NCBI GenBank assembly: GCA_963675595.2
Contig: CAXXLZ010000002.1
Span: forward strand, 1,344,001-1,408,000
Source: Thermodesulfobacteriota bacterium
GTDB taxonomy: Bacteria; Desulfobacterota; Desulfarculia; JACQYL01
Length of the DNA stretch: 64,000 nt
Direction of reading: 5' to 3'
Shown: positions 1 to 59,383 of the stretch, one piece after another
Layout of the letters: each line of letters begins with the position of its first letter
How positions within the stretch are numbered: position 1 is the first letter of the stretch
Position numbers and translations under genes: made by a program
Notes under the pieces: model-generated
What the model saw: only the letters and a program-made list of their open reading frames with translations
Database searches by the model: none
Told to the model about the DNA's origin: nothing

Positions 1-1415
1 TACAGGCCGGTGAAGAACACGATGGCCGTGTTGCATGTCATGGTTTGTTTGCCGACCTGCAACAACCGGAGTACCTCAACGATCGTATCCATTTACAGGG
101 TCGCCGGGGGACCCATGTTCCCCCGGACCCCCATAAGCGCTAACTTAAGCATTGTTTGCTATGCTTCTTTCCGTCTGAGGAATCAGCCGCTGAAGTGCTC
201 GTTTCCTTGGCGGTTCTCGCAAATAAAAAGATATGTTATCCCAGCCGGCAATGCATTCGGCCAAGCCGAGTTTAGGGTTCACGGCTTGTTTCAGCAGGTG
301 TAACATAAACATGGTCTCTCTCCAGAAGCATCGATTTCTACGGTGGTTCTTTTTGGAGTGGGTATCCCCAGGGAAAAAAAGATTCGCCTGCGGCGATCAT
401 GGCCTCCACTAAGAAAGCCACCAGTAGTTTCCCATGGATCCAGGCCTTGGCTCCTTCGATGTCGGTCTTTCTAAGATGGCCTAAACCGAGAATGGACTTT
501 AGACGCTTGAAAGCGAGTTCAATTTGCCATCGACCTCGGTACATCTCGAGGACCTGAGAGGGCGAGATTTCACGGCCCAATGTTGTGAAAACAAATATGT
601 AGGCCGCCGCTTCGAGGGTGTCCGGAGTAACTTGGCGACCTTTTTTCCTCGCCTCTTTTTCTATCGCTTTACGAGCTTTTTCAGTGGCGTCTTTGCTCTT
701 CTTGATGGCACAGATTCTACCTGGAACCAAGCGTTGTTCAAATGGAACGAATGCATCCCACTCGCCAAGCTTATTTACACGTAACGTCCTTAGATGAGGG
801 AGTAATTGGAATCGTTCCCCTTGCTTGTCCACCATGGCGACACGGTGTTTCATTCGAACCAGGACGTCGCCGCCGTTGTCTATGACATGGTGAATTCCTC
901 TTGGTGTGCAATAGGCTCTATCCGCTACAAGAAGTTCACCGCCATGGACTTTGAAATTGGTGAAGGATTCTCCGATCTTGGGGTCTGTTACATAGACTTC
1001 GTCGCAGCGCAGCGAAGGCAATTGTATGGAATAATGGACCCTCCAAGTCGTTCCGGTACTTCCAGGTTCTTGAATGGTGGAGGCATCGATCAACCTGATG
1101 CGTGAATTCTCTCCAAAAACAACGGCGGGCAGCTTTCGAAACCATTTCTCCATGACCCCTAAGGCCATCCACCGAAACCACTCTCCGCATTTATTCAGTC
1201 GTTTTAGGAGAGCTACGTCGGAAATCGACGTAATGTTGCCGAACCTGGCTTTGGCCGCCGTCAGCCGAAGTGAGCAACCTTCCGCCAGATGGATCAGAAG
1301 CGTTCGCAACAGACCTTCGGCGTCCACGAACTTACGGTATCTGACAACGGCACCAAGTTCCCTTGCTTTGGATTGCCAGCCATCGGGAAGAAAACCCTGG
1401 AGAACTTCCCAGTCT

Positions 1416-57359: not shown

Positions 57360-59383
57360 GTGCGCCGGGCAAAGCTCCGGCGATCCTGGCGGATGAAAGT
57401 TCCGCCCGCGGTAATTGCCTGTTCACCGCGAAGTCGCCGGCCCGGCGCGCAGGGGTAACCCGAGGCGTCAAGCGGGCCGGAAAAGGCCGTAAGGTCAGAT
57501 AGAGTGCAGGCCGTAACGCAAGTGAACTCGCTTCGGCCTCGTTACACGGATGGCGGCGGTGACCTTCCAAGCATATGGGGAAACCTGCCAATGGTGCGAT
57601 GGGAAAACAGGAACGTCGCACCGTGCCGCCCGGGGTGTTTGGAGACGGCATGTACTCGAAGGAGCGCCGGGGAACCCGGGAGACCCGGCGGGACGGGCAG
57701 GGCGGCAGGTAGCCCGAGTCCAAACGGCAGCGGGGAATACATAACCCGCTGCACGGTCCCGGCCGGGAGTCGGACTTGCCCATAGTAGCGAAGAAGTCCT
57801 GGAAACAGGATGGAGCCAAGGGGCAGGACTTTGATCGCGTTTCGGACGAATGGAGGAAGGACCGCTTGGACGGAAAACGTCCCACTACGGATCGGGTCAA
57901 GCCGGAAAATGGAGTGGCCGCCAAAGTCTCCCTTCTTCGGATGAAACTGGGCCTCAAGGCCAAGCAAGAGCCGGAGTTTCGATTCTATGCGTTGTACGAT
58001 CGCGTATATCGTCGGGATGTTCTGGAGAGTGCGTGGAGACGGGTACGCGCCAATCGAGGTGCGGCCGGTGTGGATGGAGTGAGCATCCGGGCCATCGAGG
58101 CAAAGGAAGATGGGGTGAAGGTCCTTCTGGAATTCATCCAGCGGGAACTGAAGGGGAAGACCTATCGACCCTTGCCGGTGAAACGGGTGTACATCCCCAA
58201 AGCCAACGGCAAGCAGCGGCCTCTGGGCATACCGACCATCAGGGATCGGATCGTCCAGATGGCGGTGCTGCTCCTGATTGAACCGATCTTCGAGGCGGAC
58301 TTCGAGGACTGCTCGCACGGATTTCGTCCGGGCCGGAACGCCCACGGGGCGTTGACGGAGATCCGGCAGGCCCTGAAAGACGGGTATCGGGAGGTACTGG
58401 ACGCGGACCTGACGAGCTACTTCGACACCATACCCCATGAACCGCTCATGCGGTGCGTGGAGCGGCGGATAGCGGACCGATCGGTGCTGAAACTGATCCG
58501 TATGTGGCTGCAAAGTCCGGTGGTGGAAGAAGTAAATGGAGTCCGGAAAGTGACCCGACCGAAGAAAGGGACACCTCAAGGAGGGGTGATTTCTCCCCTG
58601 TTGGCCAACATCTATCTCCACGAGTTCGACAAGAAGTTCCATGGTCCGGGTGGACCAGGGCGGACCATGAAAGCCCACCTTGTCAGGTACGCCGACGATT
58701 GGGTGATCCTGGTCCGGCGCATGAACCCTCGGATCATGGATTTTGCCGAAGAGACTCTCGGGTCCCTCGGGCTGACGCTGAATCGAGACAAGACCAGCAT
58801 CGTGAATCTGAACCAACCGAGAGGAAGCCTGGACTTTCTGGGCTTTACCTTCCGCTACGACCGCAGCGTGCTCGGCCCCGGTGTCTACTTGAACGTGGTT
58901 CCCTCGTCCAAGGCCCTGCACCGGGCGCGTGAGCGGCTGCGAGCATTGACGTTGAGGAAGGTGCAAGCGCCGCTGGAGGAGGTCATCCAACGGGTGAACC
59001 GATTCCTGACGGGCTGGGGCCAATACTTCAAGTTTGGGTACCCGCGGGTTGCGTTCAAGAAAATCGACTGGTTTGTCCACAACCGGTTTCGTCGATTCAT
59101 GAAGACGAGGAGCCACCGGCGCTGTCAACACCTGGACGGGCCGTCGCTGTATGCGGCGCTGCGCGCGAAAGGGTTGGTCTACCTGCATGAGAAAGCCGTC
59201 AACTTCTTGCGAATGCCTTGTCGCTGAAAGATCATCGGAGAGCCGGATGCGGGAAATCCGCACGTCCGGTTCGACGAGGGGGCGCTGCCGGTAAGTAAGT
59301 TTAGACGACACGTAGTAGCTGCGTGCAGCGAGGCGTCACTAAAAGTCGGCCTTAACTCCTTTGCCGTCAGCGCTCTACTCTAC
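57360..59383 (+). mobile_element. Group II intron (bacterial, endonuclease-less)
   Basis: 5' end GTGCG; domain V GAGCCGGATGCGGGAAATCCGCACGTCCGGTTC; domain VI ending CTACTCTAC. Confidence 0.92.
57776..59227 (+). CDS. ltrA: Group II intron reverse transcriptase/maturase
   Basis: [39 protein letters not shown] and DFLGF motifs; thumb domain, no HNH. Start uncertain. Confidence 0.94.

Follow-up and report, generated by a model that had tools for sequence, protein, structure and literature searches.

The window analysed here (64,000 nt; contig C2, positions 1344001-1408000) belongs to a Thermodesulfobacteriota genome of 6.79 Mb in three contigs with 56% G+C (labelled G000), and is dense in short intergenic repeats and mobile elements. 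Three copies of one ATTCAC-footed repeat in this window each hold a different passenger, i.e., an element of the IS4 family of insertion sequences (IS) at 132..3398 (minus strand), an IS1111-type element of the IS110 family at 13374..14768 (minus strand), and a group II intron at 57360..59383 (plus strand). A first-pass annotation, made from the sequence alone, had placed all three within the repeat, and this was confirmed in the window sequence for each of them; the observation is real and stronger than first described, as one repeat has four tenants and a fifth occupies a different repeat. The reading developed below, to which we give a probability of roughly 0.8, is that the repeat, a family resembling MITEs (miniature inverted-repeat transposable elements), is a landing pad that offers short motifs seldom present elsewhere in the genome, a different one being recognised by each of four other mobile elements.

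Repeat families were built by iterated nhmmer searches starting from the window copies, and five were obtained (F1, M12, F6, F5, and F9), which together make up 0.93% of the genome. The F1 core is 144 nt long and forms two G/C-rich hairpins; its 358 hits were merged into 303 loci (29,236 bp, 0.43% of the genome). The other families comprise 61 (M12), 214 (F6), 67 (F5, merged), and 54 (F9) loci. M12 is a frequent 5' companion of F1, with 32/61 M12 units lying at most 120 nt upstream of an F1 unit on the same strand. Pairing in F1 hairpin 2 is kept by compensatory changes (GC 151 / AT 113 at one pair; AT 123 / GC 99 / CG 27 at a second stem position), and this hairpin is more stable than shuffled sequences (z = −3.0). 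An Rfam search returned no family for the repeat, the top match reaching 15.3 bits against a cut-off of 40.5.

Full repeat units are bounded by 12-bp inverted feet (GTNNNNATTCAC ... GTGAATNNNNAC) and 8-bp direct repeats and have no coding capacity; their interior is modular, with an optional M12 hairpin module followed by the F1 core, and their length is 100-300 bp. MITE copy A (85..3616, plus strand; M12 + F1, ~265 bp minus passengers) was delimited by hits of the M12 and F1 profiles in its reconstructed empty site, with F1 at 3473-3611, and has the feet GTATCCATTTAC (85-96) and GTGAATGGTCAC (3605-3616) as well as the 8-bp duplication CAACGATC at 77-84 and 3617-3624. Since a single ATTCAC foot pair and this single duplication enclose both modules, M12 and F1 of copy A were taken as one element. 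The listed ATG of an FKBP-type open reading frame (ORF; 3609-4223) falls at 3609 within the MITE foot GTGAATGG, and the true start of this ORF is therefore probably further downstream. MITE copy B (13314..14996, minus strand; reverse F1, an F5 fragment, and a second hairpin, 293 bp minus its passenger), delimited by sequence and by a contig joint, has the feet GCAGGCATTCAC (13314-13325) and CTGAATGCTCAC (14985-14996) and the duplication AATAAATC at 13306-13313 and 14997-15004. MITE copy C (57111-57359 plus 59384-59385, plus strand; M12 + F1 hits, 251 bp minus the intron) has the feet GTTTTTGTTCAC (57111-57122) and GTGAATGCCT..AC and the duplication GAGGATCG at 57103-57110 and 59386-59393.

The same architecture was found beyond the window. 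A flanking duplication is visible by eye at several of the 22 M12+F1 composites, and exact 8-bp flanking repeats were found genome-wide at nine foot pairs (103-299 bp) versus 2, 0, and 0 at shifted offsets; eight of these nine pairs overlap the repeat families. At one locus only, that of copy B, contigs of runs X3 and X4 (two studies, ~97-99% flank identity) join position 13305 directly to 14997 with 8 letters shared, and hence are without the whole 1691-bp block 13306-14996, i.e., the repeat together with its IS. Contig joints with short sides were left out, as these derive from other repeat copies. Because it combines 12-bp terminal inverted repeats, 8-bp duplications, and the precise absence of one copy in related strains, the repeat behaves as a MITE-like family of non-coding elements, and would presumably be moved by a transposase acting in trans.

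The first-pass annotation had ascribed the spread of the repeat to a RAYT, i.e., a tyrosine transposase associated with repetitive extragenic palindromes (REPs). G/C-rich palindromes in intergenic DNA are what a REP, or a REP doublet (REPIN), spread in this way would look like, and the genome does encode two proteins weakly similar to REP_Tyr_transpos. RAYT genes usually have the REPs that they move on their flanks. Both of these RAYT-like genes, however, scored below the NCBIfam cut-off of 80 (65.3 and 59.8 bits), and none of the five repeat families occurs within 1.5 kb of them or of the one Y1 transposase of the genome, which is of the ordinary IS200 type. The 12-bp terminal inverted repeats, the 8-bp direct duplications, and the presence/absence polymorphism fit transposase-made MITEs instead; REPINs are not known to have such target duplications. 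The attribution to a RAYT was abandoned as highly improbable.

For every element copy considered in the following, the empty site was reconstructed and scanned with the five repeat profiles. The IS1111-type element of copy B, of which BLAST found eight full copies, lies in an arm of F1 hairpin 2. Its transposase (13609-14697, minus strand) carries the Pfam domains DEDD_Tnp_IS110 and Transposase_20 (PF01548 and PF02371) and matches NF033542, “IS110 family RNA-guided transposase,” with 228.5 bits (cut-off 140). TTTCC stands at both junctions (13374-13378 and 14764-14768) within the hairpin GGGGGAAACTTTCGAGAAAGTTTCCCCC, and the element ends are ambiguous within this common TTTCC; the published 7/3-nt geometry gives 13377-14766 and the target GGGG^AAACTTT, and given this target the ends are separated by 7 nt and 3 nt, respectively, from the sub-terminal inverted repeats ATGTTGGCCTCA and TGAGGCCACAT. 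The element was placed in the IS1111 group because it has these sub-terminal inverted repeats and a 3' non-coding region of 235 nt after the transposase gene, which is the definition given by Siddiquee et al. (2024, PMC11187229). A putative target-binding loop of the seekRNA or bridge RNA was assigned to 13474..13506 (minus strand) from the sequence and from covariation in relatives. In the predicted RNA sense, AAAGUUU (13500-13506) is followed by a small hairpin and then by GGGGAAAU (13474-13481); as DNA, AAAGTTT and GGGGAAAT stand on the two sides of one internal loop that follows a terminator-like hairpin. The two RNA segments match the halves of the target GGGGAAACTTT, each being complementary to one of its strands, and their order, with the complement of the top strand first, is the one published for IS1111 members (PMC11187229).

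Six of the eight empty sites of the IS1111-type element are inside F1 hairpin 2, in either arm; as the target is a hairpin arm, a perfect hairpin offers the site on both strands. The two insertions outside repeats keep GGGGAAA(C). The exact 11-mer AAAGTTTCCCC is present unoccupied at 19 sites, 11 of them in F1, and the “many” safe-harbour sites of the first-pass annotation are thus a modest number for this element. Two relatives of the element differ from it at one guide and at the matching flank. The 50%-identical relative in genome G031 (eight copies) has CTCCAAAAT as guide 2 (RNA CUCCAAAAU) and the left flank TTTCCAA/AA, and a 55%-identical relative has CGTAAAT (RNA CGUAAAU) and the left flank CTTGT/AAAT, while guide 1 and the right flank are unchanged in both (AAAGTTT(T) and AAA(A)CTTT). 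The guide loops and this covariation support RNA guidance of the IS1111-type element, as the first-pass annotation had predicted; guide RNAs are presumably made and do the guiding, in which case the element would integrate at GGGG^AAACTTT in the hairpin 2 arm, with two loop segments of the 3' non-coding RNA as its guides. Elsewhere in the genome, a truncated, 82%-identical relative (C1:339446-340086), cut by an IS1182-like copy, is located at the end of an F5 unit; its guide segment GGGGAAAT is replaced by CTGCAAAT, and the predicted target AAAGTTTGCAG has three genomic sites, none of them in a repeat, a result that is uninformative as the other flank of this relative is lost. Of two adjacent F1 units at C2:3243946-3247558, ~180 bp apart, one holds an IS1111 copy and the other an intron copy.

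Two further IS110-family elements outside the window, IS110C and IS110B, were found by tblastn with the IS110-family transposase of the window. IS110C (1335 bp, seven copies) is the fourth tenant of the repeat, with 5/7 copies in the F1 spacer between the two hairpins, at the target CCGGACCCC^TTCC(N)AAAC, i.e., CCGGACCCC^TTCCAAAC. Its 5' non-coding region (~207 nt, upstream of the transposase gene) contains CCGGACCCC and then GTTTGGAAG, the reverse complement of CTTCCAAAC; the guides CCGGACCCC and GUUUGGAAG flank a small hairpin and form a putative loop. The order of the guides is opposite to that in the IS1111-type element, which matches the published difference between IS110 and IS1111 types (PMC11187229). 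The element would accordingly integrate into the inter-hairpin spacer at CCGGACCCC^TTCCAAAC under the guidance of a loop in its 5' non-coding RNA. In a single F1 unit at C2:257309-260588, an IS110C copy directly adjoins an IS4 copy that holds an IS1182-like element. IS110B (1554 bp), again of the IS1111 type with sub-terminal inverted repeats and a long 3' non-coding region, has five copies (C2:318635, 1779689, 4107921, 4267804, and 4494743), three of which are 6 nt away from an F6 unit's end and one 34 nt away; this fifth element sits at the edge of another repeat family in 3-4 of its five copies. Guide loops were sought in the IS110B sequence, and none was assignable.

The group II intron (57360..59383, plus strand; 2024 nt), delimited by Rfam and Pfam matches and by alignment of its copies, begins 10 nt downstream of hairpin 2 in MITE copy C and leaves 2 nt of the MITE on its 3' side. 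It shows the group II ribozyme structure (domains I-IV and V/VI), with matches to RF02003 at 57387-57521 (63.4 bits) and RF00029 at 59238-59383 (48.3 bits), and encodes in domain IV a protein (57776-59227, plus strand; RVT_1 + GIIM; TIGR04416 398 bits, cut-off 300) in which Pfam found reverse transcriptase and maturase and no endonuclease domain; its best solved relative is the GsI-IIC reverse transcriptase (227 bits). The 5' exon ends in GTGAATGCCT (57350-57359) and the intron begins with GTGCG at 57360, in accordance with the 5' GUGYG of group II introns. Hence it does follow an ATTCA-type foot, as had been annotated; as copies differ over their first 10 aligned bases, its start had to be moved from 57350 to 57360. 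Five of the nine copies (seven full and two ORF-deleted) have empty sites exactly 3 nt past the end of the F1 profile, all in F1 orientation; one of the remaining copies follows an internally deleted F1, one follows a different hairpin with the same CCCCGTGAAT foot, and two are in unique DNA, where the site still reads GTG(A/C)ATGCTT.

The predicted exon-binding site 1 (EBS1) of the intron, AAGCAU (57569-57574), pairs fully with AUGCUU and at 5/6 positions with AUGCCU, the intron-binding site 1 (IBS1) of the main form being AUGCYU. The two ORF-less copies have the EBS1 ACGUAU and exons ending in ATACGC and ATACGT, and this EBS1/IBS1 covariation supports RNA guidance of the intron, so that both elements annotated as RNA-guided in the first pass appear to be so. 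The ORF-less introns (C1:183928-184859 and C2:333164-334095), which are without 1102 nt of the ORF and occupy two different ATACGY sites, look like a non-autonomous, retargeted derivative that is presumably moved in trans. A convincing EBS2 was not found in the intron; the candidate segments GUUCAC and CACGG were dropped, as the Rfam model puts one of them into a terminal loop and the other differs in the variant copies with no corresponding exon change. Assignment to the canonical IIC ribozymes was considered and rejected: domain V reads GAGCCGGAUGCGG GAAA UCCGCACGUCCGGUUC and aligns in full length to the general model, and the intron was not filed as IIC because it has an AGC (not CGC) triad, a full-length domain V stem, and an EBS1-IBS1 pairing of 5-6 bp. 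Its behaviour is IIC-like, with no endonuclease domain and a site after a stem or C-run, and the intron may be pictured as reverse-splicing after GTGAATGCYT in the 3' terminal repeat via its 6-nt EBS1, probably aided by the hairpin 10 nt upstream.

A hairpin this close to the insertion site raises the question of whether the elements recognise extruded or single-stranded hairpins rather than sequence, a mode known for IIC introns (at terminators) and for some IS1111 members (at attC). Stable hairpins conserved by covariation enclose all preferred sites or lie no more than ~10 nt from them, a stem-loop or C-run precedes 7/9 intron copies, and IIC introns are described as recognising a stem-loop plus an IBS1 3-11 nt downstream (Toor et al. 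2006, PMC1702495). Yet copies without a hairpin keep the motif in all four elements (2/8 IS1111, 2/7 IS110C, 2/9 intron, and 4/15 IS4), and the choice of site is explained by guide/target complementarity and covariation, so that targeting directed by structure is unlikely.

The IS4-family element (1385 bp; Pfam DDE_Tnp_1, NCBIfam IS4) is in the 3' arm of the M12 hairpin of copy A and has a transposase gene at 338-1327 (minus strand; PF01609 70.9 bits; NF033592 133.9 bits, cut-off 115), terminal inverted repeats of 19 bp (CATAAGCGCTAACTTAAGC), and an 11-bp duplication CCCCGGACCCC at 121-131 and 3399-3409. IS4-family elements typically make target duplications of 9-13 bp. An IS1182-like element (1416..3293, minus strand; 1878 bp) with the 4-bp duplication GTCT is nested in it. 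The annotated position was right as to the MITE unit and required correction within it, since the element is in the M12 module, 64 nt upstream of the F1 core and outside the core itself. The genome contains 15 IS4 copies (BLAST), all with an 11-bp duplication (15/15) and three with a nested IS1182-like element. Their empty sites are in F1 (4/15), M12 (3), F5 (2 plus a tandem twin), at 9 nt from an F6 unit (1), and in unique DNA (4), one of the latter copies interrupting a histidine-kinase gene at the H-box; 9/15 are inside any of the five families, or 10/15 when the tandem twin is counted. The convergence of IS4 on the repeat was overstated in the first-pass annotation. The duplications are rich in G/C runs, and 5/15 are CCCCGGACCCC or its complement (one shifted by one base). 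IS4 seems to follow a C4-N3-C4 motif in which several repeat families are rich, and its DDE transposase appears to prefer such 11-bp sites, abundant as they are in these repeats. At C2:2114159-2116940, a tandem IS4 pair is located in one F5 unit, with the overlapping duplications GGGGCAGGGGG and GGGGGCAGGGG.

The IS4::IS1182-like composite (3.27 kb) is present twice, at 132-3398 of the window and at C2:4294-7560, with 100% identity; as its two copies have different 11-bp duplications (CCCCGGACCCC vs CCCCCCCGCCC), the composite transposed as a unit. Two identical composites, and the flanks of ~50 nt common to two IS1111 copies, are what would be expected if repeat flanks travelled with the elements or came from segmental duplication. 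However, flanks diverge past the repeat unit, the 8-bp duplications of the host MITE copies differ, insertions are found in either hairpin arm, and the second composite, with its own 11-bp duplication, was transposed and not duplicated in place; an artefact of duplication is hardly credible.

Enrichment was calculated against a conservative binomial null: all F1 bases were set against the 6.5% of the genome that contains no ORF of at least 100 aa, which gives F1 a share of 6.7%. The binomial tails for F1 were 2e-6 for the IS1111-type element (6/8), 2.5e-5 for IS110C, 1.3e-4 for the intron (5/9), and 0.015 for IS4 (4/15), and 6e-6 for IS4 in any repeat family. As controls, the IS1182-like elements and two IS3 types had no copy in F1 (0/55), and in any family 0/21 (IS1182-like), 0/9 (IS3a), and 2/25 (IS3b type). 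The claim that several unrelated elements sit on different sub-sites of the repeat is hence borne out genome-wide, far above background.

How much of this enrichment is a by-product, in the sense that sequence-specific elements find their motifs mostly within repeats while insertions elsewhere are purged, with neither adaptation nor a role for the hairpins, was considered alongside the motif counts. Of the motif sites, repeats hold 11/19 (unoccupied AAAGTTTCCCC), 59/74 (CCCCGGACCCC), and 186/548 (CCCCNNNCCCC), but only 12/40 for GTGAATGCYT (in F1); specificity for sequence motifs that the repeats carry thus accounts for much of the preference. Insertions outside repeats carry the same motif, and the exact IS1111 11-mer is occupied in F1 in 5/5 cases vs 58% expected, which is not significant. 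A pure by-product nevertheless sits poorly with the guides, which are set to this type of repeat in each of three independent RNA-guided elements and also in the 50%-identical IS1111 relative from a distant genome; moreover, the intron occupies 3/12 F1 vs 1/28 non-F1 sites of the 10-mer GTGAATGCYT (about P 0.07). We consider the by-product explanation possible, if on the unlikely side, and keep to the landing pad; insertion into the repeat would then be harmless and for that reason retained.

Several observations weigh against the landing pad or against the MITE nature of the repeat. The tie of IS4 to the repeat is only loose, with 4/15 copies in unique DNA. The IS1111 copies are not all independent, as the window copy and that at C2:3698756 have ~50 nt of flank in common per side, and the null model was based on crude ORF-free DNA instead of gene calls. 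A 61%-identical relative of the intron in genome G001 follows GTGAAATCCG, where there is no scorable F1 unit. Of the ~300 units, about a dozen have a documented exact duplication, and the first duplication scan, with 7-mers at free offsets, gave 7/22, where shuffled data averaged 2.9 and reached 8 at most, which is not significant. No autonomous partner or parental IS with the same feet was found in this genome, where foot pairs with exact 8-bp duplications, sought up to 4.2 kb, are never more than 299 bp apart. Finally, convergence on the repeat cannot be separated from specificity for repeat-borne motifs plus the loss of harmful insertions.

Profile searches showed that the window also holds two IS1182-like copies and two IS3-type elements. 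The IS1182-like element at 7144 and the IS3-type element at 41730 had been annotated as hitting genes, which fits, as their removal restores frames of 196 aa and 295 aa. The latter element (41730-43028) interrupts its gene near the start; the restored 295-aa frame has a signal-peptide-like start and a C-terminus resembling what we take to be a PEP-CTERM sorting signal. Unoccupied F1 units identified with the nhmmer F1 profile and from the direct-repeat families D1, D3, and D4 include that at 41372..41489 (plus strand) and further units at 4732-4827, 6519-6628, 11171-11302, 25048-25140, 26488-26621 (minus strand), 30658-30770, 33094-33166, 44826-44933, and 49149-49264. Next to the IS cluster at 13.3-16.8 kb, an ORF at 17221-18522 (minus strand) ends in the C-terminal domain of Shedu SduA (PF14082, 82.6 bits), an anti-phage defence nuclease family. 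The region 26719-30168 (minus strand) encodes an NHL-repeat beta-propeller protein of 1149 aa that includes a peptidase C13-like segment and whose internal repeats constitute the 45-nt direct-repeat family D13.

The distribution of F1 was determined in relatives. When one F1 unit was compared by BLAST with 30 relatives, the sister genus (G001) and, weakly, G012 were the only ones to match, and G031 and G032 gave no match either; BLAST proved too insensitive, since a structure-aware model later matched G003 and G031. This covariance model covers the spacer and hairpin 2, takes 4/18 of its rows from G031, and was applied to the best 150 candidates per genome. At E ≤ 1e-3, there were at least 99 matches in G001, at least 62 in G003, at least 104 in G031, and 0 in G032; at E ≤ 1e-5, at least 149 in the own genome, at least 55 in G001, at least 9 each in G003 and G004, 0-8 elsewhere in the class, and none in any of the 10 genomes of family f3. 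When the proteins of G001-G003 were searched with the transposases of IS1111, IS110C, and IS4, nothing close was found, with one hit of 32% in G003, although the fragmented assemblies of G001 and G002 may lack multi-copy IS. In G031, whose RpoB fragment is 58% identical (vs 65%, 70%, and 81% for same-class genomes) and which is outside the class-level sample, 7/8 copies of the 50%-identical IS1111 relative abut a hairpin of this model, with one guide reset to a neighbouring sub-site. That an RNA-guided IS1111 lineage and a G-rich hairpin repeat form a long-lived, possibly co-transferred pair is a doubtful proposition at present; if it were true, covarying stem positions would diversify under guide pressure with guides re-set to follow, in an arms race or commensalism between the MITE and its RNA-guided tenants.

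Occupation of one REP-type repeat by several elements is a known phenomenon, of which the present case is a clear and rich example. Tobes and Pareja (2006, PMC1525189) reported REPs as targets of members of the IS3, IS110, IS4, IS256, and IS5 families, with IS621, ISPpu9/ISPpu10, ISPa11, ISRm22, and ISRm19 among the elements concerned; in Pseudomonas putida, 7/7 ISPpu9, 7/7 ISPpu10, and 2/9 group II introns were in REPs, and in Sinorhizobium meliloti an IS4 and an IS110 member. The presence of ISPpu9 and ISPpu10 in the same REP site has been confirmed (PMC12288879). As with targets in REPs and bacterial interspersed mosaic elements (PMC1525189), one intergenic palindromic family here hosts several unrelated elements per genome with the IS110 family predominant; unlike them, it has MITE-like ends, 8-bp duplications, and no linked RAYT, its tenants use separate sub-sites (spacer, hairpin arm, and terminal repeat), and the association with the intron is much stronger (5-7/9). 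The IS1111- and IS110-type elements share with the seekRNA/bridge-RNA systems (PMC11187229) the DEDD transposase, the sub-terminal inverted repeats (IS1111 type), a non-coding region that follows the transposase gene in the IS1111 type and precedes it in the IS110 type, two short segments matching opposite target strands in the published order, and natural reprogramming among relatives; they differ in that the target of the IS1111 type is a MITE hairpin arm, and their guides are predicted from the sequence. Introns of class IIC, for which the criteria are a CGC in domain V, a distal stem 2 bp shorter, an IBS1 of 3-4 bp, and no EBS2 (PMC1702495), insert after terminator or attC stem-loops; the present intron resembles them in being extragenic, 10 nt after a stem-loop, and without an endonuclease domain, and departs from them in the AGC triad, the full-length domain V stem, and an EBS1-IBS1 pairing of 6 bp vs 3-4. 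Correia-type MITEs (Delihas 2011, PMC3184786) are likewise short, non-coding, intergenic, hairpin-forming elements in hundreds of copies with terminal inverted repeats and target duplications, whereas the present family has a modular interior and is host to four other mobile elements. A limited literature search, which is weak evidence of absence, found no description of a MITE as the target of IS110-family elements or of group II introns.

What is understood about these element families is unchanged by these findings. The repeat and its tenants nonetheless provide a compact natural data set on target choice, in which three apparently RNA-guided elements and one protein-guided element use distinct sub-sites of one 250-bp MITE, guide and target can be matched by reading the sequence, and natural retargeting is visible, both the IS1111 guide and the intron EBS1 having been reset. 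They also indicate that “REP-like” landing pads need not be RAYT-driven REPs and can consist of transposase-made MITEs, a distinction that matters for inferring safe insertion sites and for predicting bridge-RNA targets.

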